A DNA stretch of 47,305 nucleotides from a virus (lineage: Duplodnaviria > Caudoviricetes), in the IMG/VR virus record IMGVR_UViG_3300032216_001609, positions 1-47,305 of that record, one strand, 5' to 3'. Below, in pieces: positions 19,599 to 47,131 of the stretch. Every line of letters begins with the position of its first letter. Positions within the stretch are counted from its first letter, which is position 1. Position numbers and translations under genes: made by a program. The notes below the pieces were generated by a model. The model searched no databases. It was given only the letters and a program-made list of their open reading frames with translations, and had not been told where the DNA came from.

Positions 19599-20822
19599 TT
19601 ACTTCTCTTCTATAGCTTTTACTCTCGCTGTAAGTTCTTGTACCGCTTTAATTAATGGCGATATAAACTCTTCATATCTGAGCGCTTGTGTGGAGTCTTC
19701 TTGTTCAACCCATCCGCCAAAATCTTCAATGCCAGCATCATCTAAAGCTTTTTTAACTTCTTGTGCAATTAAACCATAGTGTGTTCTTGATCCAGCAATT
19801 GGGGTTTTTATTTCATTGCCATCTTCATCTGTGGTGTAATTAATTCCGCCCACGTTATACTTATAGCTTACTGGGTTTAAAGCATTAATAAAATCAAGTC
19901 CTAAATTAGATTTAGCAATTGTATTTTTTAAATTTTTATCTGACGATACAATTGTTGATGTTTGTATATACATATTTCCCGATGCTATAACTGAAGCTGT
20001 ATATATTGTTCCGTTTGAATAAATATTTTTCCAATAACGAGCTGATCCGCTTGTTGCATCTTTTCCTAAATTATATAAGCCAGTTGAAAGTGGGTACCAA
20101 TCTGAGTTAACTCCAGTTGAAGATGTATTTGGAATGGCTAAAGAAATTCGTGTAGATATTGGATCTAAGGATGGTGTCGCACCCGCTGGTCCTTGTGATC
20201 CAGTTGCGCCAGCTGCTCCAGCTACTCCATCAGCACCTCTTGGGATAACAAAATCTAATTTTACTGCTGAGGATGTTCCTGAATTTGTTACGTTTGCGCT
20301 AGTTCCTGCTGCACCTGTTGTAGTTGAATTTACTTGAATTGTTGCTGCAGCATCACCCTTTGGGCCTGTTGCTCCAGTAGATCCGACAGACCCAGTTGGT
20401 CCAACTATTGATGTTCCCGCTGGCCAAGCTCCAGATGACTTCGGTCCAAAAATAGTTTTTGATGTTGTATTAATATAAAAATCACCATTTGATCCTATTG
20501 AAGAAAATGGATCTATAGTTCCATTTAATACGCTGTTTCCGCCCAAACTTGTTCCTGCACCCCAAGCTCCGCTAGTCTTTGGTCCAAAAATAGCATGGCT
20601 AGTTGTATTGATATAAAAATCACCATCAACTCCCGTTGATGTTATTGGATCAGATGTGCCATTTAATATACTATAGCCCCTTGGTCCTGTTGCTCCTTGT
20701 GGGCCTGGGTTTGCAGCAATAAATGCAGCTATATCATTGCCCAAATACCCAAGATCTCTTGGGACATCTGGAGAGTCTGTATAGCTTGGGAAACGCCATC
20801 CGTTAACACCTGTTGTACTCAT
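19599..20822 (-). CDS. Tail fibre-like protein with collagen-like triplets and a C-terminal peptidase S74 intramolecular chaperone
   Basis: Gly-X-Y runs; two GDFYINTT..IFGPK repeats; SSDKNLK...LNPVSY...GLIAQEV...LIKAVQEL. Confidence 0.85.
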   Translation of the reverse strand: MSTTGVNGWRFPSYTDSPDVPRDLGYLGNDIAAFIAANPGPQGATGPRGYSILNGTSDPITSTGVDGDFYINTTSHAIFGPKTSGAWGAGTSLGGNSVLNGTIDPFSSIGSNGDFYINTTSKTIFGPKSSGAWPAGTSIVGPTGSVGSTGATGPKGDAAATIQVNSTTTGAAGTSANVTNSGTSSAVKLDFVIPRGADGVAGAAGATGSQGPAGATPSLDPISTRISLAIPNTSSTGVNSDWYPLSTGLYNLGKDATSGSARYWKNIYSNGTIYTASVIASGNMYIQTSTIVSSDKNLKNTIAKSNLGLDFINALNPVSYKYNVGGINYTTDEDGNEIKTPIAGSRTHYGLIAQEVKKALDDAGIEDFGGWVEQEDSTQALRYEEFISPLIKAVQELTARVKAIEEK

Positions 20823-20841: not shown

Positions 20842-21453
20842 TTAATTTAATTTACTTGACCTAAACATAAAGTTTGGACACATGTATTTATTGCCACTAA
20901 TTATTGTACTTGATGCGTGATAATATGGTTTTGTTGAGGGGAAAATTAATAAGCTCCCAGGCTCTGGTTTTAGCCTGATCCCTTGTTGGGGAAATTCAAC
21001 TTCTCCACCTTCAAAATCATCATTTAAATATAATACCATTGAAGCTGTAAGTCTAGATTCATCATCATTATCTTCGCAATCTATATGTGGGCCCATTTGT
21101 CCGCCTGGATTATATTTTCTAATTGTGATTTCATTTGGCAAATATCCAAGATCCATGTCAACGTGCTTGGAGTAATCTTCTACACACATATTAAAAATAT
21201 CATCTATTGTTGATAAAATTAAAGCAGATTCTTTTTCTTCTTCAGAAACAAAAGAAAATTTAGCTGGACCAGTTTTAAATTGTCCAAATACGTCGTCTGG
21301 CCTAGTACTAGATACCCAAGGTTGCCAAGAAGATAAAAGTAGCGGGTGTGCTATTTTAATATCTAAATCTTCTATTTTTTTAACAAAAGCTTTTGGGTTT
21401 GCAATTAAACTTTTGTAATAAAAAATTTTATGATCTAAAATTTCTTTAATCAT
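20842..21453 (-). CDS. 2OG-Fe(II) oxygenase, prolyl 4-hydroxylase-like
   Basis: HID...YLNDDFEGGE...H...KY. Confidence 0.88.
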   Translation of the reverse strand: MIKEILDHKIFYYKSLIANPKAFVKKIEDLDIKIAHPLLLSSWQPWVSSTRPDDVFGQFKTGPAKFSFVSEEEKESALILSTIDDIFNMCVEDYSKHVDMDLGYLPNEITIRKYNPGGQMGPHIDCEDNDDESRLTASMVLYLNDDFEGGEVEFPQQGIRLKPEPGSLLIFPSTKPYYHASSTIISGNKYMCPNFMFRSSKLN

Positions 21454-22148
21454 TCTCTTCCTTTTGGCATAACTGGCTTGCCTTCAGGGGTTGCCCATTT
21501 TTTATAAAGCTCTTCTTGCTCTGCTCTAACTTGTTTTAATTCATCTGCCCAAGCTTGTTTTTGCTCTTCTGTATATTCACATCTAGCATCATCCCAAAAA
21601 GAACCGATAGTATATCTTATTCCACCCTTGACTGTTGTTACCATGTGTTCTCTCTGATGCCCTCCAGCAAAGAATGCACCAAGACCGATTTCAGGTTTAA
21701 TTTCTATGCTGCCATCTTTAAACTTTAAATGTCCGCCTTCAAAGTCATTATTTAAATAAATAAAAACTGCATATTTACTTTTTTCAAAAGCTGTTGGATT
21801 TCCATGCTCATCAGAATTATCTGAATGGTAATCTGCAAATGCACCTTCAATCCATCTTTGTGCATGGTAACTGACTTCATTAACCTCAAACCCTAAAAGT
21901 TCTTCTGTTTTACTTTTAATTTTTTCTTTAAGCTGATTAAAATAATCTTCTGGTAATCCAAATTTTAATAGATTAACATCAGATGGCCAGTAGCCCATTG
22001 CTTGAGATCCATAAAAAGAAATTTCATTCCATTTTAAAATTTTATTATCAACTAAAAAATCAAAATAATTAATAATTGATTTGCAAGTTTGTTCGTCAAT
22101 AAAATTTTCTACAATAAAAAATTCATCTCTAATTTTGGGCAATGTCAT
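21450..22148 (-). CDS. 2OG-Fe(II) oxygenase, prolyl 4-hydroxylase-like
   Basis: HSD...YLNNDFEGG...EH...RYT. Confidence 0.88.
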   Translation of the reverse strand: MTLPKIRDEFFIVENFIDEQTCKSIINYFDFLVDNKILKWNEISFYGSQAMGYWPSDVNLLKFGLPEDYFNQLKEKIKSKTEELLGFEVNEVSYHAQRWIEGAFADYHSDNSDEHGNPTAFEKSKYAVFIYLNNDFEGGHLKFKDGSIEIKPEIGLGAFFAGGHQREHMVTTVKGGIRYTIGSFWDDARCEYTEEQKQAWADELKQVRAEQEELYKKWATPEGKPVMPKGRE

Positions 22149-22933
22149 GACTGATACCCTAAATTCTTTCTGTCAGCATATTTCATATTTCTAGGATTTT
22201 CTTTTTCAATTCTGTCCCATTCCATTTTTGACCATCTATATGCACCGTGATGCATCTGATTACTTAACCACTCTTGACTTCCTGGATAAAAATGCTGAAT
22301 AAAGTTTCTAATAAAAAACTTTTCTCCATTGCGAATTGTTCTGACTCCATGAAAATATGGATCTCCTGAAGGGAATACCAATATATCTCCAGCTTTGGGT
22401 TTGTATGGGAAAAATTCATCTCCCACCCAAAACTCAATGTCTCCGCCCTCGTAATCATCGTTTATATATGTAGTGCATGTTAAAAAGAACTTTGGTCCTG
22501 GCATATCTCTTTCTGAAATAATATAATCGGTATGATATTGCATAGTTAATTCGTTACCCATTGTATTAATATTTGAATTATATTTTGAAAAAGATGATGT
22601 CATTAGCTTAGAAGTAGGTGGCAATGTTACATTATATGTATTTATGTAATCTTCAATTGCAGTATTATATGCCTCATAAACTCTATCGGACAAATGTTTT
22701 TCTTCATCATACATTGGACCCAATTCTCGTGGTTCATTTGGATCATGCTTTTGCTGAGAGTAAGTTCCAAAGATTGACCACTCATCCCATTTTCTTAAAT
22801 AGTATTTACCATCAGAAGTTTTTTCTGATCTGTTCATAATGTCATAAAGATTATCTGCATCTGGGAGAAGCCCCTGATAAATCCTAACATTTGGCAATAA
22901 TTCAAAAGATGTATATTCGTAATTATTTGTCAT
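22145..22933 (-). CDS. 2OG-Fe(II) oxygenase, prolyl 4-hydroxylase-like
   Basis: HTD...YINDDYEGG...FHGV...KFF. Confidence 0.88.
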   Translation of the reverse strand: MTNNYEYTSFELLPNVRIYQGLLPDADNLYDIMNRSEKTSDGKYYLRKWDEWSIFGTYSQQKHDPNEPRELGPMYDEEKHLSDRVYEAYNTAIEDYINTYNVTLPPTSKLMTSSFSKYNSNINTMGNELTMQYHTDYIISERDMPGPKFFLTCTTYINDDYEGGDIEFWVGDEFFPYKPKAGDILVFPSGDPYFHGVRTIRNGEKFFIRNFIQHFYPGSQEWLSNQMHHGAYRWSKMEWDRIEKENPRNMKYADRKNLGYQS

Positions 22934-23603
22934 TTTGATCTAACCCTAATTGTGTAATTGTCCAAAAGAAGGGAGCAGTATATCTAGTCCCGCTTGTTAC
23001 TTTAGTTACCCCATGAATATAATTTTTATCCCCTGGGAAAAAATATGCAGCTCTAGGTTTTGGCTTAAACTTTATGTTTTGCAATGGAAAGAATAATTCT
23101 CCGCCTTCATAATCATCATTTAAATAAAATACAGTTCCAATGTCATACCAAGGGAATTCATTTGGTGTTCCTGCATCTGGGCCTTCGTGAAGTTCTTTGT
23201 CTGCATGTGGGAATTGCATTGCTCCGACAGGCCACCTTACAATAGCAGCATCAGTCGGACTAACCTTAACGTTAAATTTTTCTTCTATAATAGGAGTCAT
23301 TCTTTCAATAACAAGTCTTAAAATTTCAATAACTTTGCCTGTTGGATCTGCTTTTAATAAAGTATCTTTTGTTGCAACACGATCTTCCCAAACCCTGTGA
23401 TCATAAATTATATTTCCATTTTCATTCCATTGGGATTCTGTAATATCCCAAATTGTATTATTTTTGGCAAAAGTCAATAGGTAATGTTGTTCTTCTGGTG
23501 TCACCATATCTTCAAGCTCAACAACATTTTCTGAACCATTTCCAAAATAACCTGATGGAGTTATGGTTTCTCTTGCGTATCTAGCTCTTTTTGTTGGTTC
23601 CAT
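22923..23603 (-). CDS. 2OG-Fe(II) oxygenase, prolyl 4-hydroxylase-like
   Basis: HAD...YLNDDYEGGEL...IHGV...RYT. Confidence 0.88.
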   Translation of the reverse strand: MEPTKRARYARETITPSGYFGNGSENVVELEDMVTPEEQHYLLTFAKNNTIWDITESQWNENGNIIYDHRVWEDRVATKDTLLKADPTGKVIEILRLVIERMTPIIEEKFNVKVSPTDAAIVRWPVGAMQFPHADKELHEGPDAGTPNEFPWYDIGTVFYLNDDYEGGELFFPLQNIKFKPKPRAAYFFPGDKNYIHGVTKVTSGTRYTAPFFWTITQLGLDQNDK

Positions 23604-23610
23604 TTTTTAC

Positions 23611-24339
23611 CTATTCATATTTCTTAAGAGATCTGACGGTCTGCTTATATGCCCCGCCATCTTTAGTTCTAAACTTTTTTGCTTGTGCGTCATGCCTTGC
23701 TTGTAAAGCAGGCATACTATAAAACTTTGTTTCCATTTTCCAGTCTTCTCTTTTATATGGGATTAACTGAAGATAGGGTGTTCCTTTGGGGATCTTTCCT
23801 TCAAATCCATCTTTTATAAAAAATGGTATTAAGCCTGGAGTATCCATCTTGTCATTATCTATTATAGCAGAGGTAGTAATAAATGGTAAATCAAATCTAT
23901 TAATTGGATGAATGTACATAACACTATATCCTTCAGGAACAGATGGCGCCCAATTTGGATACCAGTGAAAGTGACTGCTTCTATAACCATGCGGTACAGG
24001 GAATTCATTCATTGGAGCACGAGCTCCTACAAAATCTTCAAATCCAGGTTCTGCTTTTACAAATAGCTCACCGTTATCTGATTTAGTAAAGGTAATGTCA
24101 CAGGGAGTAGTATAAAAATAACCCGTAATAAAAATATCCAGCAGTCCTGGACAAGATTTAAAACTTCTTACAAATCCGCCTTCGGCATTAGGCCAGTACT
24201 CTCCCGTTTGTTTATTAACTTCAAATTTATCTGCTTTTTTAAACCATTCAGGAGTTACATTTTTTGCAGCTTGAGGGTGGTAGTCTTCGCTAATTATATT
24301 GTAAAGTCTATTAGAATGAAAAGTAATTTTATTTGACAT
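23611..24339 (-). CDS. DUF6065-like / dUTPase-fold-like protein
   Basis: PEWFK, KSCPGLLD, HPINRFDLPF, AIIDND and IPKGTPYLQLIP; paralog of 28015..28740. Confidence 0.5.
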   Translation of the reverse strand: MSNKITFHSNRLYNIISEDYHPQAAKNVTPEWFKKADKFEVNKQTGEYWPNAEGGFVRSFKSCPGLLDIFITGYFYTTPCDITFTKSDNGELFVKAEPGFEDFVGARAPMNEFPVPHGYRSSHFHWYPNWAPSVPEGYSVMYIHPINRFDLPFITTSAIIDNDKMDTPGLIPFFIKDGFEGKIPKGTPYLQLIPYKREDWKMETKFYSMPALQARHDAQAKKFRTKDGGAYKQTVRSLKKYE

Positions 24340-25027
24340 TTGTTTTTAGCCTCAATGTTTTTAATTCATGAGACCCTATTTTGTTGCCCCTATGATCTGT
24401 TGCATTTCTATAAAATCCCGCCCATTTTCCTTCTGCATTTAATTTGTCAATAGTAATTCCATATGCTCTTCCATCAAATTTAGTTCCTATATAATTTGAA
24501 CCATCGTATATGTCGACTTCAAATTCATTTAGTTTAGATAAAGATATTGGGATGATAGTTGCAACAGGTGTGCCTGCTGGTATTGTTATAACTTTATTTG
24601 CTTCCGTAATTTTCCAAACTACTGGTATTTCTCCTGAGAAAAAAGATGTGCTTAGTACTGTTGTAAAAGCTTGTCCGCCTGGAATAAAAAAATTAGGGGC
24701 TGGCATAATTAAAGTAGTAACATCTTCTTCGGTTTTAAAAGTAAGTCCAGTGACAAAACTAATAGTTCCGTTTGATCTATTTGAATTACAATATGTTTCT
24801 CCAGATAATATTTTTACGTGATTTGGATTGCTATCTGATATCCCATCCCAAATAAACTGTATATCTTCTGGGAAAGATATGCCCCAGCCTAAAGTATTTG
24901 AAAGGCTTACTGGGAAACAGTTATAGGCATGTCTATTTGCTGTTTGTTCCATCCAGTCTCTTTTTACTGATATTTGCTCTATCTTGGCTGGATTTTGACC
25001 AGTAATGAAGGCTTGTATTTTATGCAT
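24329..25027 (-). CDS. DUF6065-like protein
   Basis: RDWMEQTANRHAYNCFPVSLSNTLGW matches my recollection of the DUF6065 N-terminal motif; IPAGTPVATIIP. Confidence 0.55.
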   Translation of the reverse strand: MHKIQAFITGQNPAKIEQISVKRDWMEQTANRHAYNCFPVSLSNTLGWGISFPEDIQFIWDGISDSNPNHVKILSGETYCNSNRSNGTISFVTGLTFKTEEDVTTLIMPAPNFFIPGGQAFTTVLSTSFFSGEIPVVWKITEANKVITIPAGTPVATIIPISLSKLNEFEVDIYDGSNYIGTKFDGRAYGITIDKLNAEGKWAGFYRNATDHRGNKIGSHELKTLRLKTNVK

Positions 25028-25718
25028 AACCCTCAGTGTACCTTTTTTCTATCTCTCTGTAATCTGGAGTATGTGGTGCTTCTAAATAGTCAAGCATTGT
25101 TACTATTGAATACTTTGTTCCTTTTGTTACTGGCAATGATGCGTGAGAAAATAAATAAGTTGAAGGGAATAGATATAGATCCCCTGCTTTTGGTTTAATT
25201 TTTAAATTAAATTTATCAAAAAACAACTCCCCTCCTTCATAGTCATCATTAATATAGCCTACTGAGGAAAGTACGCAAATATAAGAATAGCCGTGATCTG
25301 AGTGCACTTGAAAATGTTGACCTGGACCATATTTAACAAAATTAAAAGATTCCCAATACTTTAAAGGAGCAACATTAAATTTTTGTCTATAATCTTCAAC
25401 TGGACCAAGCTGAGCTTCTTTTGAGTCTTCCCATATTTTTTCTAATTTGATTTGATCTGGACTCTTATTGGAATCATCTGGGTTATTTTTTTTAATTTTA
25501 AAATCAAAGGCATCTCTGTATTTTAGGTCATTATTAGCATACCCAGTTGTAGCCTGCTTCCATTTATAGGTAGCATGTGGTGCATCTGAATATCCGACGC
25601 CTTCAGCATTGGGATCTAAAGATAAACACTCTTCTAATCTATTAATTAAATTCATATCTTCAGTAAATGTGTTTCTATAAACTAACACACCTGGGGCTAA
25701 AATTTCTGGCTGATTCAT
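25020..25718 (-). CDS. 2OG-Fe(II) oxygenase, prolyl 4-hydroxylase-like
   Basis: HSDHGYSY...YINDDYEGGE...SH...KYS; close paralog of 28744..29433. Confidence 0.88.
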   Translation of the reverse strand: MNQPEILAPGVLVYRNTFTEDMNLINRLEECLSLDPNAEGVGYSDAPHATYKWKQATTGYANNDLKYRDAFDFKIKKNNPDDSNKSPDQIKLEKIWEDSKEAQLGPVEDYRQKFNVAPLKYWESFNFVKYGPGQHFQVHSDHGYSYICVLSSVGYINDDYEGGELFFDKFNLKIKPKAGDLYLFPSTYLFSHASLPVTKGTKYSIVTMLDYLEAPHTPDYREIEKRYTEGYA

Positions 25719-25755
25719 TTATTCTCCTGTTTTCATTATATCTAAAATATTATTT

Positions 25756-26505
25756 TTAGTCAACTAATTTTTCATATGGAAATTTATTTTTAAAATGATC
25801 TATTGCTACACGACTTGATTTGTACATATCTTTAGTCCAAAATGTAGTATGCGTATATCTTGTTCCGCTTTGTATTTGCTTTATGCCATGCATATTTTCT
25901 ATGCTGCCACTAAAAACAAGAAGCATGCCAGTTTCTGGCTTTATACTAAAATCATGTTGTGGAAAAAATAATTCTCCACCTTGAAAATCATCATTTAAGT
26001 ATAGCATTGATGTATAAAGTTTATTTGTAAATAATCTTTTATATTCAGCAATATTATTTTTATCAAAAAAATATTTACATTCTTCTGGAACTTCATCTAT
26101 ATTTATTGAGGTTTCATCAAAATTGGGATCAATAAAATCTACATGCGGTTCTTGTACATTTGGGTATTGCCATTTAACAATTTCCCACAATTCACTATAT
26201 ATATTAAAATCAGGATTAAAAAAGTCTAAAACCTGCTCTTTCATTTTATTTTGAATTGGAACAACTTTTTTAAATAGATCGATATATTTTTCTATGCCTT
26301 CTTCATACAATGCATTTATTTCAATTCTTCTGTTATCCCAATGTCTAGAGTGAGAGAGGTATTCTTCTTCTGATTTAAACATAGACCTAGATCTATTCGC
26401 TTTAGGCCAAAGGTTGCTACTATTTGCATAATCAATTAGCCATTTACATTCTTCTTCAGAAATAAAATTTTTAATTATTCTAACTTTGGGGTTTATGTTA
26501 TCCAT
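25756..26505 (-). CDS. 2OG-Fe(II) oxygenase, prolyl 4-hydroxylase-like
   Basis: HVD...YLNDDFQGGEL...MHGI...RYT. Confidence 0.88.
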   Translation of the reverse strand: MDNINPKVRIIKNFISEEECKWLIDYANSSNLWPKANRSRSMFKSEEEYLSHSRHWDNRRIEINALYEEGIEKYIDLFKKVVPIQNKMKEQVLDFFNPDFNIYSELWEIVKWQYPNVQEPHVDFIDPNFDETSINIDEVPEECKYFFDKNNIAEYKRLFTNKLYTSMLYLNDDFQGGELFFPQHDFSIKPETGMLLVFSGSIENMHGIKQIQSGTRYTHTTFWTKDMYKSSRVAIDHFKNKFPYEKLVD

Positions 26506-26980
26506 TTGTTTTCCTTAAAAATGTTGTTAGGGTATATCTTTCTCCTGAAAGCAACGGCAGTACTTCATGTGTATACCTTTCATCTCCTGGGTGAATAATT
26601 AAATCCCCAGCTTTTGGTTTATAGATATAATTTAAGTTTGGATAAAATAATTCACCACCCTCAAAATTATCGTTTAAATATATAATAACGCCATATTCTG
26701 TTCCTTTACCAGACTCACCGTCGTAATGTCTATGCCAAGTTGTTTCTGGTGTAGTTTTATTAATATGTCTTATCATTTGAACATAAAGCTTATTTTCAAA
26801 AATTAAATTTATTTTTTTAACAATGCTTTTAATTATATCGTGTTTATTAGAATTTGTAATATAAACTTTTACAAGCTCATCTCTGCGTTTCCATTGTGTA
26901 TTTTTATCTAAATACTCTGACATAAAAGAATTAAGTTCTGCATCAGATAAAAAATTATTAATTATTTTAATGTTTTCCAT
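26498..26980 (-). CDS. 2OG-Fe(II) oxygenase, prolyl 4-hydroxylase-like
   Basis: HYD...YLNDNFEGGEL...THEV...RYT; start placed at ATG 26980 (TAATG overlap). Confidence 0.85.
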   Translation of the reverse strand: MENIKIINNFLSDAELNSFMSEYLDKNTQWKRRDELVKVYITNSNKHDIIKSIVKKINLIFENKLYVQMIRHINKTTPETTWHRHYDGESGKGTEYGVIIYLNDNFEGGELFYPNLNYIYKPKAGDLIIHPGDERYTHEVLPLLSGERYTLTTFLRKTNG

Positions 26981-27543
26981 TATCTTAGCCAACTTGCTAT
27001 CGCATATCTAATTCCACTCGTAACTGGAAGTACTCTATGAGTATAAACATAAGATGATGGGAATATTATAAGGTCGCCCGCCTCTGGTTTGTATAAAATA
27101 TTAAATCTTGTAAATTCAATTTCTCCTCCTTCATAATTGTCATTAATATAATAAACAATTGAAGTTCTTCTAAAAGTTCCTCCACCATCATCTGAATGAG
27201 AACTAAAGTGAGCATCTTTACCATACTTTAATATTTTAAATGGTTGATGAGATTTTAAATCTATTTGATGTTCAAAAAAATAATCTTGTTCTGCGTCAAA
27301 TATAGAAGATGAAATTATTTTAGATATATTTTTAATTTCTTCTTTATCTGCAGCTTTAGGGCTAGATGGTATTTCAATAGAAAGAGTGTCTCTAGCTTCT
27401 TTGTTTATATTTACAATTCCGTCAACTTGTTGAACATATTCTTCTCCCCAATCTTCATCTTTTAAATTATATACAAAATCTGTTATATCAACATTAATAT
27501 TTTTATATACAAAAATTCCTGGTGCCAGAAATATTTTATTCAT
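26980..27543 (-). CDS. 2OG-Fe(II) oxygenase, prolyl 4-hydroxylase-like
   Basis: HSD...YINDNYEGGE...THRV...RYA; start placed at ATG 27543 (MNKIFLAPG), overlapping the upstream stop. Confidence 0.86.
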   Translation of the reverse strand: MNKIFLAPGIFVYKNINVDITDFVYNLKDEDWGEEYVQQVDGIVNINKEARDTLSIEIPSSPKAADKEEIKNISKIISSSIFDAEQDYFFEHQIDLKSHQPFKILKYGKDAHFSSHSDDGGGTFRRTSIVYYINDNYEGGEIEFTRFNILYKPEAGDLIIFPSSYVYTHRVLPVTSGIRYAIASWLR

Positions 27544-28018
27544 ACGACATCCTATGATAGGGCCTTCTAAACCACTTAGGAACATCTAGATTAATTTCAT
27601 TGGCCCAAAGTATGCCAAAAGCATATGTTGTATCTTCTAAATCATATTCAAACTGATCTTTATTATCAGCAACTATTGTTTTATTCATAAATTTACCATT
27701 TAAGAATGTAATGGTTTGATATTTAATTGGATCAGAAATGCTATAAGAGTTTAATTTATTATTAAGTTTTATAATTTGAAAATTGCTTGGAAAAATTTTT
27801 TCTATATTTCCATATTTACTATATAAAACAGATTGAACTTGCAATCCAGTTTCTTCCACAATTCTTGCAGATGTTCTATGGAATTTATACATAAGCTCTC
27901 CATCAATTCTATCTTCTGACCAAATTTTAATTTGTTTAGATTTATCCCAGGTATTTAGGTTCAACAAAACTTCTTGATATGTTTTTAGCATATCTTCATT
28001 TATTGGAGTATCTATCAT
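27536..28018 (-). CDS. Hypothetical protein, possibly a degenerate oxygenase paralog
   Basis: 160 aa, translationally coupled on both sides; KYQTITFLN and TYAFGILW echo oxygenase strands, but there is no HxD...H. Confidence 0.5.
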   Translation of the reverse strand: MIDTPINEDMLKTYQEVLLNLNTWDKSKQIKIWSEDRIDGELMYKFHRTSARIVEETGLQVQSVLYSKYGNIEKIFPSNFQIIKLNNKLNSYSISDPIKYQTITFLNGKFMNKTIVADNKDQFEYDLEDTTYAFGILWANEINLDVPKWFRRPYHRMSYE

Positions 28019-28740
28019 AGGTATTCTTTTCTGTGCCAGAGGGTATCTTTGTAAACCCCGCCATTTGGCACTCTAAATTTTTTATAGTTTAATTTAATTC
28101 TATCATAGATCTCGCCTGCTTTATCTATTTTAAAATCTGATTTCCAATTTTCTCTTTTAAATGGAAGGATTTGAACATATGGTGTGCCTGCTGGAATTGT
28201 TCCTTCCCAATCATTTATTAAAAAAAACGGCAAAGAGCCTGGAAGGCTAACTTCATCAGTATCTATAATTCCTGTAGTATTTATAAAGGGAAGATCAAAT
28301 CTATTTGCTGGAGTCATATAAAAAGTACTATAGCCTTTTGGAGTTTGTATTCCCCAATCTCCTACCCAAGCAAATGAATATCTGTAATATCCTATTGGAG
28401 ATTTAAATTCATTTAAGGGGTCTCTTCTAACGCAAAAATCATTATACCTTGTATCTTCAATCTTAACTTGAATTTCATTATTATCGTCTTTATAAAATTT
28501 AATATCACATGGAGTTTTTAATACATATCCAGACATAAATGTATCAAGCAAGGCTGGGCATGCTTTCCAAGTTGGAATTTTGCCGCCTGTTTCTAGCTCG
28601 TAATATTTACCATTTTCATCAATAGCAAATCTATTAGCATCTTTATACCATTTAGGTATATTTTTTGAAGTGCTATCGGGCTTATTAATACTATCTTTAT
28701 TTAACCAATGTCTGTTTGATATAAAAGTAATTATATTCAT
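28015..28740 (-). CDS. DUF6065-like / dUTPase-fold-like protein
   Basis: PKWYK, KACPALLD, PANRFDLPF, TGIIDTD and IPAGTPYVQILP. Confidence 0.5.
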   Translation of the reverse strand: MNIITFISNRHWLNKDSINKPDSTSKNIPKWYKDANRFAIDENGKYYELETGGKIPTWKACPALLDTFMSGYVLKTPCDIKFYKDDNNEIQVKIEDTRYNDFCVRRDPLNEFKSPIGYYRYSFAWVGDWGIQTPKGYSTFYMTPANRFDLPFINTTGIIDTDEVSLPGSLPFFLINDWEGTIPAGTPYVQILPFKRENWKSDFKIDKAGEIYDRIKLNYKKFRVPNGGVYKDTLWHRKEYL

Positions 28741-28743
28741 ATA

Positions 28744-29433
28744 CTACTTTTCTTTACTAAAAGTGTTACCTACAACATGCCCTCTGTCAGTATAATCAAG
28801 CATTGTTACTAAAGAATACTTTATTCCGTCTTCTACTGGCATTGCTCTATGAGGATACATAAAGTTAGATGGAAATATCAATAGATCTCCAGCATCTGGT
28901 TTAATTGTAACTTCTTGTCTACTAAAGAATATCTCTCCGCCCAAATAATTATCATTAAGGTACCCTACAAGGGAAACTGTAGCATTGTATGAATATCCGT
29001 GATCTGTATGTTCTTGAAAGTGTTGGCCTTTGCCATATTTAACAAAGTTCATAACTTCCCAATATTCTAGCTCTGACAAATTATAATTAAAGCAATAGTC
29101 TTTTACTGCTTCATTCATTACATCATAGCAATCCTGCCAAACTTCTTTTAACTCTAAAGTACCTGGATCTGTTCTATGTAAATCACTTTTTCTAAACTTA
29201 AAATCTACACAATCTCTATAGTCTAATTTTTTAAATCCATACCCTACTGTTGCTTCTCTCCATTTATGTGGATTTGAAGTATCAGATATAGACGTTTCAA
29301 GTCTATCAATAATATTAATATTAGTATTTAAAACATTTTTATAAACTACTATACCTGGAGCGATTTCGTATTTATCGCTCCAGGTTTTAGTAATCTGTGT
29401 TGGATCAATTAACTTTGGTCCAGCGCTTGACAT
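28744..29433 (-). CDS. 2OG-Fe(II) oxygenase, prolyl 4-hydroxylase-like
   Basis: HTDHGYSY...YLNDNYLGGE...PH...KYS. Confidence 0.88.
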   Translation of the reverse strand: MSSAGPKLIDPTQITKTWSDKYEIAPGIVVYKNVLNTNINIIDRLETSISDTSNPHKWREATVGYGFKKLDYRDCVDFKFRKSDLHRTDPGTLELKEVWQDCYDVMNEAVKDYCFNYNLSELEYWEVMNFVKYGKGQHFQEHTDHGYSYNATVSLVGYLNDNYLGGEIFFSRQEVTIKPDAGDLLIFPSNFMYPHRAMPVEDGIKYSLVTMLDYTDRGHVVGNTFSKEK

Positions 29434-29456
29434 TTTTTGTCCTATCTTTTAAAAGA

Positions 29457-30782
29457 TTACTTGTTGTGTACAAGCACTCCACTTAAGAAGAACCAGTCAT
29501 AAGGTTCGCAGTTATATTGATATACATTGTATATTGCATCTGTGAGATAGTCAACCTTAGTAATTTCTACTTCGTGTTTTTCTCCTGAAGAATCTACTGT
29601 TACTAATGATTCCCCAATTTCGACGTAATATGCCTCTTTAATCTTATATTCTCCCGCTATGGTTTTAACAAATACTGGTTGAGTAAATGTTACCTTAGTG
29701 TCAATATTATTATTAAAGTACATAATATCTGCTTCTTGAGTTTCTTCAATTGAAACAATTGTTGTTTCCACAAATTCTCCAACTGTTAAGTTTTCAGAAT
29801 TCCAAGTAGAGATCTGATAAGAATCTGCTACTGATGGATCAATTTGATTGATTACAACTGATTTAATTTTATCTCCTACCTGTAAGAACTTAGCTGGCAC
29901 TTGACCATCCATAGTATCTACAAGTGTATTTTCTTCTACGCATGGTGGTCCGAACCAAGGGATGTACGACGCAAAGGACGGTGGTGCGAAGAACCCAGGT
30001 GGTGAGAAGAATCCTGGTGGTGAGAAGAATCCTGGAGGTGCGAAGAACCCAGGTGGTGCGAAGAACCCAGGAGGTGCGAAGAACCCAGGAGGTGAGAAGA
30101 ATCCTGGTGGTGAGAAGAATCCTGGAGGTGCGAAGAACCCTGGAGGGGAGAAGAACCCTGGAGGCGAGAAGAATGAAGGAGGGGAGAAGAAAGTTGTAAC
30201 GCTATTAGACTGTGCTGATGTTAAGCCGTTTCCATTACCGTTTGTAGCATAAACATTGTATGTCTGTGCTGTTCCTTGTTCCTGAGCAACGTTAACTGAT
30301 GTTCCTGTTGCTGTATCTCCTGACTTTCCATCATCTGATGTCCAGTGATAGTTAGTTACCGCTGATCCACCAGTTGCTGGTGCACTCCATGAAACAACGT
30401 CTACTCCAGCTGATGAAGAAGAAGCTGAAGGAGTTCCAACCCGATCAGGTACTGTTGTTGGTGTTACTGAGTTTGATGTTGTAGTAGGACCATTACCAAC
30501 TGCATTAGATGGAGTTATTGTAAATGTGTAAGCAACTCCGCCAGCTAAACCTGTAAAGGCATATGATGTTAAAGTTGTTGTTTGTGTTGTAGTTGCTGGA
30601 CTTGACACTATACTATATAGTGTAGCTGGTGATGATAATGGATCAAGCGTCCAAGTTAGGTTTGCTGACCCGTTATTAAACGCTCCTCCATTAACACCAG
30701 TGGCTGTAAATCCAGTAACAGCGAACGGCTGAAGGAAGTTATCCGAAGCCGAGCTCTTAATACCGATTTTCTTATTTGCCAT
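29457..30782 (-). CDS. Two fibronectin-III domains + (FF[S/A]PPG)12 repeat + C-terminal Hint (intein-like) domain
   Basis: FN3 motifs (LTWT...YTFTITPSNAVG; VSWSAPATGGS..TNY); Hint begins CVEENTLV..DG...LQVGD at aa 281 and ends VLVHNK-stop; GGAG RBS. Confidence 0.85.
   Translation of the reverse strand: MANKKIGIKSSASDNFLQPFAVTGFTATGVNGGAFNNGSANLTWTLDPLSSPATLYSIVSSPATTTQTTTLTSYAFTGLAGGVAYTFTITPSNAVGNGPTTTSNSVTPTTVPDRVGTPSASSSSAGVDVVSWSAPATGGSAVTNYHWTSDDGKSGDTATGTSVNVAQEQGTAQTYNVYATNGNGNGLTSAQSNSVTTFFSPPSFFSPPGFFSPPGFFAPPGFFSPPGFFSPPGFFAPPGFFAPPGFFAPPGFFSPPGFFSPPGFFAPPSFASYIPWFGPPCVEENTLVDTMDGQVPAKFLQVGDKIKSVVINQIDPSVADSYQISTWNSENLTVGEFVETTIVSIEETQEADIMYFNNNIDTKVTFTQPVFVKTIAGEYKIKEAYYVEIGESLVTVDSSGEKHEVEITKVDYLTDAIYNVYQYNCEPYDWFFLSGVLVHNK
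29976..30191 (-). repeat. 12 x 18-bp tandem coding repeat, FF[S/A]PP[G/S]
   Basis: Read directly; variation is synonymous or S/A and G/S only. Confidence 0.97.
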
Positions 30783-35731: not shown

Positions 35732-38359
35732 TTACTTATTGTGAATTAATATTCCATTAACAAAGAACCAGTCGTATGGCTCACAGTTAAACTGATAAAC
35801 ATTCATAATCTGATCAGTAATATAATCAATTTTAACAATTTCAATTTCTGAAACAGTTCCATTTGAATCTACAGATACAAGATGCTCTCCTAGTTCAATA
35901 TAGTAAGCCTCTTTAATCTTATACTCTCCCGCCAAAGTTTTAATAAACATTGGCTGTGTAAATGTAACTTTAATATCAATATTTCCATTAAAGTATATAA
36001 TGTCAGCTTCTTGAGTTTCATCTACAGAAACAATTGTGGTTTCTATAAATTCACCTGTTGTTAAAGTATCTGAATTCCAAGTTGATAATTGATATGAATC
36101 AGCTATTGATGGATCAATTTGATCAATTTTAATAGACTTAATTTTATCTCCAACTTGCAAGAACTTAGCTGGCACTTGACCGTCCATGGTGTCAACAAGT
36201 GTATTTTCTTCTACGCATGGTGGTCCAAACCAAGGAATGTAGCTCGGGAATGAAGGTGGAGCAAAGAATCCTGGTGGTGCGAAGAACCCTGGAGGTGCGA
36301 AGAACCCAGGTGGAGCAAAGAATCCTGGTGGTGCGAAGAACCCAGGTGGAGCAAAGAATCCTGGTGGTGCAAATACTGGTGGTGTATTGGAGCATGCTGG
36401 TGGAATTCCAAGTTGTGCAATGATTTGAGCAGAAGTCATTCCTTGTGTAGATGCTGTTCCAGTAATAAAAGAATGTCCTGTAGACGGAGTTGGTGTTCCA
36501 TAACCGCCAGAGTAGTTACCGCTTGGGCCATAACAATCCACATAAATTGGATATCCTGCAGCCACATATTGATATCTTGCAACTGTAACTTGGAACGGCG
36601 GCGTTGTAGTTGCTTGATTATATTGAGTACCTGCAATTGGAGATTGTGATTGAATTGTTCCATCAAGTGATGCATTTGAAGTTGATGGATGACTTCCAGT
36701 TACAACAGTAAAGTTGCCATAATTTCCATCTGATGTTGATCCGCCTACATAATTTGGAATAGTATAATATTGAGTTACTGGAGGAGAATATGAATAAAGA
36801 CTTACGTGTAATACTATAGGAATTGCATTAGATGCTACTTGAGTTCCCCCTGATGGATTTTGAGATGCAACTAGTCCATCATATCCTGCATTTGATGTCA
36901 TAGTTACTGCATCATAATATAAAGTATACACAGAAGTTGAGCTGCCTGCACTTCCTCCAACTAAGTTAGGAATTGAATAATAAGTAATTTGAGCTTGAGA
37001 TGTTGCAGAATTACTTGCAGATACTGGGCCAATAGTTCTTAAATCAGTTAGCAAAACAGTTACAGAACATGTTATTGTCATTCCATCGTATGCAGTTGTA
37101 CTTGCTAAATTAAGTGTAGAATCTGATGCAATATTTAATGTAGACCCATTCGCCCGCCAATCATATATATACATATAAATAGATGATGAGTTAGTCCATG
37201 TTCCTGTGCTACATGTAAATACTCTGCCATTCGTAGTTGAAATAGTTGGAGCCACAGTATTTGATGGTGTTGGGGCTATTGGATAAACTATAGATACTGC
37301 TGGACTTGATGTCCATGAAGTTTGTGTATACCGTGGTGCTGTACCATTAACCTTTACAGTAAATGATCCATATGTGGTACCTCCTGCTCCAATTTGAGAA
37401 ATAGCATATGATGTTGCAGTTGGACCACCACTTCCAACCATTCCGCTAGCAATTAATAGTGTCCCGCCATCATAGATTTCCCAGCTGGTTTGATTAATTA
37501 AATGTGTTGACCAGCTTAAAGTTCCGCCAGTTGAATTTGAAGACATGGATGCAGTTAGTGTTGGTTTGTCTGGTTTTAAATCACTTACAGATGCATTCTT
37601 GCCCCCACCTACAACAGTGGTTCCACTAACATTTGATGTGTTCTTTGGATTTACTAGTATTCCTAAAGTACCTTCTGCTGAACCTGTATCTATTACAAAT
37701 TTTACAACATTTCCATTTACGCTATAAGTACCTTTTGTAGCATCTGTATTATTAACAAGGCTTGTAATTTCAGTAAATGAAACATTTGGTCCTTGATATT
37801 GCATATAATAATCTGTTGCAGCTTTTACTTTATTCCATGTCAGCTCAACAATACCATTTGATGTTACATTTACCGTAATGTCTGTTTGTGCTGCTGAATT
37901 TACAACAGGACTTGCTGATGTATAAATTGTTGTCTTATTACTTCCATAAGAATTTGTAGCTGTTACTTTACATCTAATATTATATCCAACATATTTAAGG
38001 GTTTGAGATGAATCCCATAAATCTTCATTTAAATAAAATGAATTATTTGTTGCTCCAGATATGTCTTGCCATGAAGAGCCATTAATACCCTTTTGCCATT
38101 GATATGTATAAGATGTTGGAGAGTTTGTCCATGAGCCTGTTGATACTGAAATAGTTTCTTGAGCACCATAATAAAACGCACCATTTTGCAAAGATAATAA
38201 TGGCAGTGATGTGTTTACTGGTGTTAAATCTGCAACTGTTTTCCAAGTTGATCCGTCATAAATAAATGCAGCCTTAGAGTCCCGCCAGGTAGACCCGTCG
38301 TAGACCTTAATGTTTTTAAATGGGTTCCATGAAGAGCCATTAAAAATATTCAGCGGCAT
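35732..38359 (-). CDS. Ig-like/PASTA-like adhesin-type virion protein + (FFAPPG)7 repeat + C-terminal Hint domain
   Basis: Two Ig-like repeats (STGxWTN...YxYxW); two PASTA-like repeats; Hint from Cys715 to ILIHNK-stop. Confidence 0.82.
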   Translation of the reverse strand: MPLNIFNGSSWNPFKNIKVYDGSTWRDSKAAFIYDGSTWKTVADLTPVNTSLPLLSLQNGAFYYGAQETISVSTGSWTNSPTSYTYQWQKGINGSSWQDISGATNNSFYLNEDLWDSSQTLKYVGYNIRCKVTATNSYGSNKTTIYTSASPVVNSAAQTDITVNVTSNGIVELTWNKVKAATDYYMQYQGPNVSFTEITSLVNNTDATKGTYSVNGNVVKFVIDTGSAEGTLGILVNPKNTSNVSGTTVVGGGKNASVSDLKPDKPTLTASMSSNSTGGTLSWSTHLINQTSWEIYDGGTLLIASGMVGSGGPTATSYAISQIGAGGTTYGSFTVKVNGTAPRYTQTSWTSSPAVSIVYPIAPTPSNTVAPTISTTNGRVFTCSTGTWTNSSSIYMYIYDWRANGSTLNIASDSTLNLASTTAYDGMTITCSVTVLLTDLRTIGPVSASNSATSQAQITYYSIPNLVGGSAGSSTSVYTLYYDAVTMTSNAGYDGLVASQNPSGGTQVASNAIPIVLHVSLYSYSPPVTQYYTIPNYVGGSTSDGNYGNFTVVTGSHPSTSNASLDGTIQSQSPIAGTQYNQATTTPPFQVTVARYQYVAAGYPIYVDCYGPSGNYSGGYGTPTPSTGHSFITGTASTQGMTSAQIIAQLGIPPACSNTPPVFAPPGFFAPPGFFAPPGFFAPPGFFAPPGFFAPPGFFAPPSFPSYIPWFGPPCVEENTLVDTMDGQVPAKFLQVGDKIKSIKIDQIDPSIADSYQLSTWNSDTLTTGEFIETTIVSVDETQEADIIYFNGNIDIKVTFTQPMFIKTLAGEYKIKEAYYIELGEHLVSVDSNGTVSEIEIVKIDYITDQIMNVYQFNCEPYDWFFVNGILIHNK
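36251..36376 (-). repeat. 7 x 18-bp tandem coding repeat, [F/V]FAPP[G/S]
   Basis: Read directly. Confidence 0.97.
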
Positions 38360-46139: not shown

Positions 46140-46292
46140 ATGCCAAGAGATCATTTTTCTAAAGTAATGCATAGCCCATATTTTCAATCAAGTGGGTATA
46201 AAGATACGCCAAGTGGAAAAGCTGAACAACAAATGATAAATAAATTGAATAAAATTTCAAATTTTTTTAAACGACTAATTAGGAAAAAATAA
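46140..46292 (+). CDS. Small basic hypothetical protein (50 aa)
   Basis: MPRDHFSKVMHSPYF...; stop overlaps the next start (TAATG). Confidence 0.55.
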   Translation: MPRDHFSKVMHSPYFQSSGYKDTPSGKAEQQMINKLNKISNFFKRLIRKK

Positions 46293-47131
46293 TGTTTCAG
46301 GAAAATGCAAACTTTGAACAAATAGCTGAAGAAATTTGGATTTGGCGAAATTTTGTTACTGAAGAAGAAAATAATCAAATTGTTTCAATTATGAAAGAAT
46401 ATGAATCTCGTTTTTCTAATAAAGATCAAGCTTTTAAATTTGAAGATCAGGCCATCGATTGGTATAAAGATAAGACTGGGCCAACCCTAGTAGAATTAAA
46501 GCCTATTTGGGATAGAATCTCTATGGCGTTATATCCAGATCATTATATACATCCTCAACTTTTTGTAAACGTAATGCGTCCTGGTGACGATGGCATGTTT
46601 GTTCATGCTGACAGTCCAGGAATGAACATGGAACACCATTTAACACAGCTAGACAGATGGTCAACATGCTGTAGATTAAGTCATGGCATAGTTACTTATT
46701 TTGGTGACTACACAGATGGACAAATTTTTTATCCAAATATTGAAAAAGATGGTTCTGTAAAAAATAGACCTGGAGATTTTCAAGATTGTCTAGAAGTAGA
46801 TGTAAAGCCTAGAGATCTTGTAGTGCACGGAGCTGGACATCCTTGGGAACATGGAGTTAGACAAATAACAAGTGGCATTAGATATGCTTATTCAAACTTT
46901 TGCATGGAAAAAGAACATGCACCTGGAACATACGAGCTATTTAATCCCGATAAACATCCACATATGATGGATAAACAAGAAATTATTGATTGGAATGCAA
47001 CTGTACATCCTGAAACAACATTTTGTAAAAAGAAATGTATTTGTGGAGATTCAGCAGACTTCCCATATTGCGACAATACTCATAAAATTGTTAATAAAAG
47101 AAAACAAGAAGAGGGCAATTCAGACATTTAG
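46292..47131 (+). CDS. 2OG-Fe(II) oxygenase fused to a C-terminal CDGSH-type Fe-S motif
   Basis: HAD...YFGDYTDG...EHGV...RYA; CICGDSADFPYCDNTH. Confidence 0.8.
   Translation: MFQENANFEQIAEEIWIWRNFVTEEENNQIVSIMKEYESRFSNKDQAFKFEDQAIDWYKDKTGPTLVELKPIWDRISMALYPDHYIHPQLFVNVMRPGDDGMFVHADSPGMNMEHHLTQLDRWSTCCRLSHGIVTYFGDYTDGQIFYPNIEKDGSVKNRPGDFQDCLEVDVKPRDLVVHGAGHPWEHGVRQITSGIRYAYSNFCMEKEHAPGTYELFNPDKHPHMMDKQEIIDWNATVHPETTFCKKKCICGDSADFPYCDNTHKIVNKRKQEEGNSDI

Follow-up and report, generated by a model that had tools for sequence, protein, structure and literature searches.

A phage run of oxygenase genes as a candidate tailoring system for proline- and phenylalanine-rich protein tails

We analysed a DNA stretch of 47,305 nucleotides from a tailed virus (Duplodnaviria; Caudoviricetes; IMG/VR virus record IMGVR_UViG_3300032216_001609, positions 1 to 47,305), hereafter the window, and focused on a run of 13 genes that follows the gene of a 441-aa protein whose tail carries an FF-PP repeat, an IPWFGPP tip and a Hint domain. 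Our analyses suggested, with a probability of about 0.6, that this run encodes a tailoring system oxidising the Pro/Phe-rich tails of two fibre-region proteins of the phage, of 441 and 875 aa. A core set of genes would correspond to the F(x)PP repeat, and a further, add-on set to the IPWFGPP tip. The genes were named by length and are, in order, A229, D241, U160, B201, C164, E249, F232, D232, D242, G226, H262, I232 and J203; nine encode 2-oxoglutarate (2OG)-Fe(II) oxygenases, and such arrays are called batteries below.

Oxygenase batteries and tail composition across relatives

Related loci were fetched with the whole protein (56), with a LamG protein of the window (18) and with E249 (28), and further with the N-terminal FN3 region (the best 80 of 577 and the best 80 of 477), with DUF6065 (the best 80 of 574) and with the HxH family described below (the best 80 of 444). 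Among them were 190 distinct complete FN3-type proteins, of which 182 were counted and eight were dropped for short downstream DNA. With a tail-class threshold at a Pro fraction of 0.2, a battery accompanied all 114 proteins with tails at or above the threshold and was absent from 67 of the 68 below it; the sole Pro-poor battery locus (L192) is a frameshifted copy of a PP tail. The co-occurrence test proposed in an earlier note on this DNA, made from the sequence alone, therefore came out in favour of the association. A first division into PP and non-PP tails placed three loci by hand (L126 and L192 with the PP class, L319 with the other); under fixed thresholds 178-181 of the 182 proteins were concordant. 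Loci fetched by the N-terminal domain alone, a search blind to tail and enzymes, comprised 65 Pro-rich tails with a battery and 39 Pro-poor tails without one, and both discordant classes were empty. The reverse search gave a similar picture: an F(x)PP repeat lay upstream of 63 of 64 informative DUF6065-anchored loci, the other 13 of the 77 being too short.

What the battery tails have in common is F(x)PP. Of the 115, 52 contain no Pro-Gly and only 44 have three or more, so that X-Pro-Gly, which the window does have (10 PPG), is not conserved; we rejected it as a rule, and the collagen-type chemistry from which the earlier note had argued was not supported. Phe alone was also rejected as the target, because pure Gly-Ala-Phe tails have no adjacent oxygenase (6/6). 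Among the relatives there is turnover in the repeat unit, in the cap and in accessory genes such as those for sulfotransferase, Asp/Asn beta-hydroxylase and radical SAM proteins, while no PP tail has lost the core, a pattern less well explained by linkage. In many PP-tail proteins (L110, L118, L123, L130, L225-L243 and others), a short Cys-rich tip, with several CxxC or CC motifs for example, replaces the Hint domain, and in L111 a radical SAM/SPASM gene adjoins such a protein.

A different gene family, with HxH...H motifs, follows 51 of 58 single-Pro tails, all three Asn/Tyr tails and only 2 of 115 PP tails; His/Gly/Tyr tails on non-FN3 Hint proteins also precede it. Its members are proteins of about 215-230 aa with W-H-x-H...H motifs in one to four tandem copies (L095:7374-9280, L108, L134, L143 and others). 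Searches of Pfam, NCBIfam and PDB returned no match to this HxH family, which had only a weak profile match to the A/B/F oxygenases; its motifs, together with an ESM Atlas lead to PF13759 (score 0.96, 57% of the cluster), are a lead towards an oxygenase. In L277-L301 (e.g., L279:3630-4760), (HGYGGF)-like repeats with a Hint domain are followed by two dUTPase-fold genes and the HxH family.

Two scans with the N-terminal domain estimated the tail-protein family at about 690 and about 1400 stored stretches, and it had no match in 50,697 cultured phage records. A scan of species genomes with the DUF6065 alignment found six loci, all on phage-like contigs in metagenome-assembled genomes (MAGs). The battery of L253-L258 and G002 lies on short contigs that had been assigned to MAGs from unrelated bacterial groups; they have the look of phage contigs and not of host genes.

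The gene run, its enzymes and the two tail proteins

The 441-aa gene is followed, 23 nt on, by the 13 genes on the same strand, with intergenic gaps of -50 to +37 nt. Open reading frames (ORFs) and coordinates confirmed the layout described by the earlier note, with nine oxygenases and three DUF6065/dUTPase-fold genes in a tightly coupled series. The features are as follows.

29457..30782, minus strand: 441-aa candidate substrate (N-terminal motif, FN3, repeat, IPWFGPP tip, Hint); ORF, fn3 E 5e-6
29976..30191, minus strand: (FF[S/A]PP[G/S])12 repeat, aa 198-269
29943..29963, minus strand: IPWFGPP tip, aa 274-280, abutting Hint Cys1; invariant in 24/24 aligned members
29460..29942, minus strand: 161-aa Hint domain resembling bacterial intein-like (BIL) domains, with Cys1, T-x-x-Q at block B and a C-terminal His-Asn-Lys
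28744..29433, minus strand: A229, 2OG-Fe(II) oxygenase of A/F type, core battery
28015..28740, minus strand: D241, dUTPase-fold protein with a conserved KxCP cysteine
27536..28018, minus strand: U160, oxygenase fold without HxD...H, predicted inactive; WFGPP-linked set
26980..27585, minus strand: B201, oxygenase with a near-complete prolyl 4-hydroxylase (P4H) pocket (R65, F127, R139, W199); WFGPP-linked set
26498..26992, minus strand: C164, small oxygenase; orthologues lie behind a long WFGPP-Hint paralogue in another lineage
25756..26505, minus strand: E249, oxygenase of the WFGPP-linked set, its HxD followed by a conserved insertion
25735..25763, minus strand: sigma70-like site TTGACT-17-TATAAT (11/12 match), 17 nt before F232
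25020..25718, minus strand: F232, oxygenase, core battery, 45% identical to A229
24329..25027, minus strand: D232, DUF6065, core, in 59/59 fully visible batteries
23611..24339, minus strand: D242, dUTPase-fold paralogue of D241
22923..23603, minus strand: G226, oxygenase, core, in 59/59 fully visible batteries
22145..22933, minus strand: H262, oxygenase, core, in 53/59 fully visible batteries
21450..22148, minus strand: I232, oxygenase, core, in 59/59 fully visible batteries
20842..21453, minus strand: J203, oxygenase, core, in 57/59 fully visible batteries (weak assignments counted)
19599..20822, minus strand: S74-chaperone tail spike carrying short Gly-X-Y stretches, the next gene after the battery; possible alternative substrate
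35732..38359, minus strand: 875-aa second candidate substrate, N-terminus unrelated to that of the 441-aa protein
36251-36376 and 35735-36217, minus strand: seven repeat units and Hint domain of the 875-aa protein, its IPWFGPP tip identical to that of the 441-aa protein

In the 441-aa protein, aa 1-197 comprise the conserved N-terminal motif and FN3 modules. The repeat indeed has the 12 hexamers that had been read as (FFxPPG)12; ten are FF[S/A]PPG, and the terminal units are FFSPPS and FFAPPS, ending in Ser instead of Gly. The units differ from one another at third codon positions, which marks the repeat as maintained at the peptide level and not newly duplicated in the DNA. The claim that a second protein ends in the same repeat-Hint module also held, and the Hint domains of the two proteins are 78% identical. 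IPWFGPPC is unchanged in 24 aligned members, whose segments are 56-88% identical to that of the window. Among 58 distinct WFGPP tips, the first Pro codon of IPWFGPPC was CCT in 58/58 and the Gly codon GGA in 57/58, the other degenerate codons being variable; this constancy may reflect shared descent or a constraint at the DNA or RNA level.

All nine oxygenases scored above the Pfam cut-off for PF13640 and keep HxD...H...R/K (9/9). Within orthologue groups, the first His and the Asp of the Fe/2OG ligands are conserved at 100%, the second His at 98-100% and the Arg or Lys at 97-100%. Their pairwise identity of 19-45% marks the array as old and diverse. The P4H pocket was compared at the four positions that enclose the target proline in the algal enzyme (Arg93, Tyr140, Arg161 and Trp243) and in PHD2 (PMC2847220); equivalents were assigned by motif offset and not by superposition. 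B201 keeps three of the four (R65, R139 and W199, each 100% conserved in 41 sequences), with Tyr replaced by Phe (98%). The eight other oxygenases have no equivalent of Arg161 or Trp243 (Trp becoming Met or Phe), and A229, F232, E249 and G226 retain a conserved upstream Arg. The description of the array as nine prolyl hydroxylases was consequently not supported, the proline pocket being found in B201 only.

U160, the one gene that had been left without an assignment, can now be given an oxygenase fold without metal ligands. Its AlphaFold model (pLDDT 80), for which Foldseek was also used, matched P3H1 at Z 9.9 (root-mean-square deviation (rmsd) 2.8, 136 residues aligned) and a PHD at Z 9.4, and neither His nor Asp stands at an invariant position among 14 aligned members. 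Compared as sequence profiles, U160 and the A/B/F oxygenases gave no significant match, and ESM Atlas gave no usable one. The model suggests a prolyl-hydroxylase-type beta-helix that, lacking metal ligands, is likely a pseudo-enzyme; it adjoins B in both gene orders seen.

D232 belongs to DUF6065 (Pfam E 9e-27). D241 and D242 had no Pfam match, and their profile matches that of D232 (hhalign 88.5%, E 2.7e-6). The model of D241 folds as a dUTPase (best Z 9.1, rmsd 2.8, 123 aligned; Foldseek best E 1.4e-3), and the top 14 rows of its structure alignment (VIA-align) were all dUTPases or dCTP deaminases. The close D241/D242 family carries [GA][IV][IV]DxD (117/117), G[TS][PV]xxQ (106/117) and RxxxGGxY (115/117), which we take to be the dUTPase-type catalytic motifs, and each occurs in 0/149 D232-type sequences. 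A conserved Cys motif is present in 107/117 D24x and 147/149 D232 sequences. Distant D241/D242 members in non-PP phages lie immediately before ribonucleotide reductase, and D241 and D242 may be nucleotide enzymes embedded in the run. D241/D242 homologues are also conserved in HF1/HF2-like haloviruses (L462, Halorubrum tailed phage 7, gp38, and 49 other records), where they form an unannotated dUTPase-fold family, with a thymidylate synthase neighbour in one record. A fusion of DUF6065 with a JmjC/cupin domain was seen in two of four long bacterial ORFs scanned (L468:1471-3165 and L469:574-2220; Cupin_8/JmjC), which ties DUF6065 to hydroxylases. Pfam and NCBIfam scans of the 13 genes revealed no protease family, and neither a protease nor an exporter turned up in the run.

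The add-on set follows the tip. B, U and E are present in all 11 battery loci with a tail ending in IPWFGPP directly before the Cys of the Hint domain and in none of the 104 other battery loci; this linkage of B201, U160 and E249 to the tip is new here. The window has nine oxygenases, versus six in the sister lineage. A metagenome motif scan, in which some contigs repeat earlier loci, gave 45 loci: all 18 with enough DNA showed A then B, 17 of them also U, and the remainder comprised nine long paralogues followed directly by C164, seven followed by an unrelated 394-aa gene and 11 uninformative loci. In the other WFGPP lineage, C164 lies 6-7 nt behind the long WFGPP-Hint paralogue in 7/7 distinct proteins, whatever the repeat. 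The WFGPP tip accompanies repeats of both the FFxPPG and the PPFF type and stands in two gene orders, and the G226 tree rejected its carriers as one clade (approximately unbiased test, p-AU 2e-83). The window is a mosaic, in which the core F232-J203 is 57-88% identical to a lineage without the tip and add-on set, and the Hint domain is 58% identical to the other WFGPP lineage versus 37% to the lineage without the tip. In the close relatives L002-L006 and L010-L014, the 394-aa gene stands after the long WFGPP-Hint gene, and the window has no such gene at that position.

The Hint domain matched the BIL domain of PDB 2lwy (profile E 6e-8) and shares with it an N-terminal Cys, a terminal His-Asn and the lack of a +1 Cys, Ser or Thr. 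It differs in block B, which reads T-F-T-Q with Gln in place of His, in capping the low-complexity tail of a phage protein and in being optional in its family. Among 157 related Hint domains, the block-B residue is Gln in 90, His in 47 and Glu in 17; at position 1, 113 have Cys and 38 have Ser. With Cys1, a His-Asn-Lys end and no +1 nucleophile, normal splicing is excluded and cleavage is expected; the replacement of the block-B His makes self-cleavage uncertain. BIL domains mostly cleave, and several inteins without the block-B His are still functional (PMC7664689), and cleavage here is plausible from the sequence. The domain is present in 53 and absent from 62 of the 115 battery loci, and 45 of the 67 loci without a battery have it; on a quick tree built from 96 N-terminal domains its presence changes 21 times, independently of battery and tail class. 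We therefore rejected the Hint domain, read as a follower domain in the earlier note, as an obligatory follower in a RiPP-like cluster, as it is dispensable in battery loci; it may still serve as a follower for the WFGPP set.

The earlier note had seen no terminator inside the run. Two weak terminator-like matches lie in coding sequence of the run on the minus strand (25939-25927 and 24153-24135), and these, together with the internal sigma70-like site, leave a single transcript not established. That site, between E249 and F232, is the best promoter-like match in 19 kb, where 85 matches were found in total versus 82 expected. It scores 11/12 in 11 of 19 close relatives (the window copy counted) and 10/12 in four more. 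Sites of at least 11/12 precede 13/146 A-type and 12/82 F-type genes and none of B, C, E, G, H, I, J, D232 or U. The core genes F232-J203 may be transcribed on their own.

Proposed mechanism and alternative explanations

In the mechanism that we propose, the core set (A/F, G, H, I, J and DUF6065) would act on the Pro-Pro repeat by oxidation, probably hydroxylation; since the core enzymes lack the P4H pocket, the chemistry is probably not plain collagen-type 4-hydroxylation. B201, the putatively inactive U160, E249 and C164 would act on or near the IPWFGPP tip. The Hint domain would be an optional cap, probably cleaving at Cys281 and exposing IPWFGPP as a new C-terminus, and the tail would then stay on the FN3 part. 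The recognition element would be the tail and not a leader, because two unrelated N-termini carry the same tail end, both in the window and in 10 of 16 related pairs, in which at least the last five tail residues are common to two unrelated proteins of one genome. Both tail proteins would be virion appendages, as their genes sit among fibre genes, and the modification might tune a sticky aromatic tip for adhesion, assembly or shielding. Only tentatively do we extend this to a modular tailoring code, in which interchangeable aromatic tails (PP-rich, single-Pro, Asn/Tyr, His/Gly and Gly-Ala-Phe) would each have a matching oxygenase set, and in which the Hint-exposed IPWFGPP would be made a modified or cross-linked end group by B201, U160, E249 and C164.

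Several observations weigh against tail tailoring. All of its support is co-occurrence of adjacent genes, which linkage alone can produce, since tail and battery lie side by side and a recombining block could yield the same pattern. The battery trait changes seven times on the N-terminal-domain tree, only three of the changes being forced by well-supported branches, and independent pairs gave three in the same direction, none opposite and one without difference (p 0.25). The link to WFGPP comes from roughly two lineages, and a single transfer of one linked block may account for it; Thr-Pro repeat proteins that lack WFGPP are also followed by B-like paralogues, five close relatives (L002, L003, L005, L009 and L015) have a battery without C164, and E249 has one distant homologue in an unrelated context (L167). 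An adjacent oxygenase is absent after 7 of 58 single-Pro tails. Eight of the nine oxygenases miss the P4H pocket, and the D241/D242 family retains dUTPase-like motifs, with homologues beside thymidylate synthase and DNA polymerase in halovirus HRTV-7 and near ribonucleotide reductase in cyanophage S-RIM4. The virion location of either tail protein is a proposal drawn from gene position, and the conserved host-type promoter-like site before F232 suggests that the core set is expressed separately.

Part of this evidence would also suit a battery that makes or modifies small molecules or nucleotides and co-travels with the Pro-rich tail in one recombining block, which we consider unlikely but the most serious of the alternatives. 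The three dUTPase-fold genes in the run, the [GA][IV][IV]DxD motif kept throughout the close D241/D242 family, the nucleotide-metabolism neighbourhoods of homologues in cultured viruses, the internal sigma70-like site, the few independent changes and the eight enzymes without a P4H pocket all speak for it. So does bacterial DUF6065, beside which no such repeat was seen within 1.5 kb in 18/18 loci read of 20 fetched, a count that leaves out one unpublished genome and one phage-like contig; the cyanophage Syn9 array was also read in this way by Iyer et al. (PMC2938197). It leaves unexplained, however, why none of 114 PP-rich tails lacks a battery although repeat unit, cap and accessory genes turn over, why enzyme families switch with tail chemistry, and why C164 follows the WFGPP tip at a second locus; moreover, the nearest solved-structure relatives of the oxygenases, by profile comparison, are peptidyl hydroxylases.

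It is still less probable that the enzymes modify other fibres, namely the downstream S74 spike with its Gly-X-Y stretches or the upstream long fibres, the FF-PP tail being structural or adhesive and unmodified. The run does continue past 20842 into the spike gene after a 19-nt gap, and collagen-like and tail-collar proteins have been predicted as substrates of co-encoded hydroxylases elsewhere (PMC2938197). Yet some batteries precede a large gene such as ribonucleotide reductase instead of a spike, the LamG gene of L062 is likewise preceded by long collagen-like fibres but its visible 5.5 kb contain no oxygenase, and the battery tracks tail proline content. Hydroxylation of host proteins early in infection, unrelated to virion assembly, appears very improbable: a Pseudomonas P4H hydroxylates EF-Tu, according to the title of PDB 4iw3, and host-type promoter-like sites precede A/F-type genes and no other oxygenase group, but the tail-specific gene sets would have no explanation. 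Oxidation of the two tails remains the reading that we prefer.

Known systems, phage setting and significance

Among the closest known systems is the array of cyanophage Syn9, which has about ten diverse tandem dioxygenases together with a dUTPase-fold protein in which a Cys is conserved (Iyer et al., 2010, PMC2938197); the window likewise has nine diverse tandem oxygenases and dUTPase-fold Cys proteins. The Syn9 array was interpreted as secondary-metabolite synthesis and also contains tryptophan halogenases and a JmjC member (PMC2938197), whereas no tryptophan halogenase or JmjC match was found among the 13 genes of the window with Pfam, PHROG or NCBIfam. The passages on Syn9 name no repeat substrate, and collagen-like or tail-collar substrates are predicted there for other operons (beta-hydroxylase with sulfotransferase) (PMC2938197); in the window a repeat protein is adjacent. 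The P4H of chlorovirus PBCV-1 (PDB 5c5t), which hydroxylates prolines in -Pro-Ala-Pro-Lys- repeats (PMC3634087), is similar as a viral 2OG oxygenase acting on Pro-rich repeats and has a weak profile match to the A/B/F enzymes. It differs as a single enzyme of a eukaryotic virus with no FF-PP substrate and no Hint cap, against nine in the window, of which only B201 has the P4H pocket.

Clusters for ribosomally synthesised and post-translationally modified peptides (RiPPs) combine repetitive core peptides with oxygenase tailoring. The window resembles them in having a gene-encoded repetitive peptide beside tailoring-type enzymes, the set of which varies with the peptide, and departs from them in that the candidate substrates are fibre-region proteins of 441-875 aa with no shared leader and a dispensable Hint follower; the FN3 N-terminus also occurs at loci without a battery, and the 875-aa protein does not have it. 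I232 matched the YhhC model weakly (E 0.006), far below the cut-off. Literature searches, which covered few subscription journals, brought up no description of such tails or of the enzyme sets matched to them, and nothing on DUF6065 by name, on bacteriophage virion hydroxyproline, on oxygenases of freshwater actinophages or on jumbo-phage dioxygenases with sulfotransferases. For phage RiPPs or prolyl hydroxylases, the matches listed concerned, by title, only recombinant collagen or PP1.

The window is a linear virus record with a CheckV completeness of 43%, and the structural genes on its minus strand, for portal, maturation protease, virion structural protein and tape measure, form a module of siphovirus type. 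Its 600-aa LamG protein has cultured matches in Streptomyces phages only (77 records, best 26% identity). In phage Comrade (Stanwilliamsviridae), the LamG homologue lies two genes ahead of the portal, as in the window; it is preceded there by endolysin and ribonucleotide reductase, and the fibre-plus-oxygenase block is absent. From this LamG kinship we infer an actinobacterial host. At 46292-47131 on the plus strand, outside the cassette, lies a tenth, divergent oxygenase-like gene of 279 aa, 17-26% identical to the nine battery enzymes, with a C-terminal CDGSH iron-sulfur finger (Pfam E 3.5e-5, below the cut-off).

Phage 2OG-Fe(II) oxygenase arrays have been known since at least 2010, and to our knowledge none has a demonstrated substrate. 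The locus described here names a short, synthesisable candidate, the FF-PP repeat with the IPWFGPP tip, and predicts which enzymes act where, and its relatives provide natural negative controls, namely those without the add-on set and the Gly-Ala-Phe tails without an oxygenase. If tail tailoring is true, many genes now classed as auxiliary metabolic genes would in fact encode enzymes that modify virions, and the eight oxygenases with non-standard pockets could be new peptide biocatalysts. Should the modular code also hold, phages of this family would display RiPP-like chemistry on the virus particle and would be a source of new peptide oxygenase reactions.

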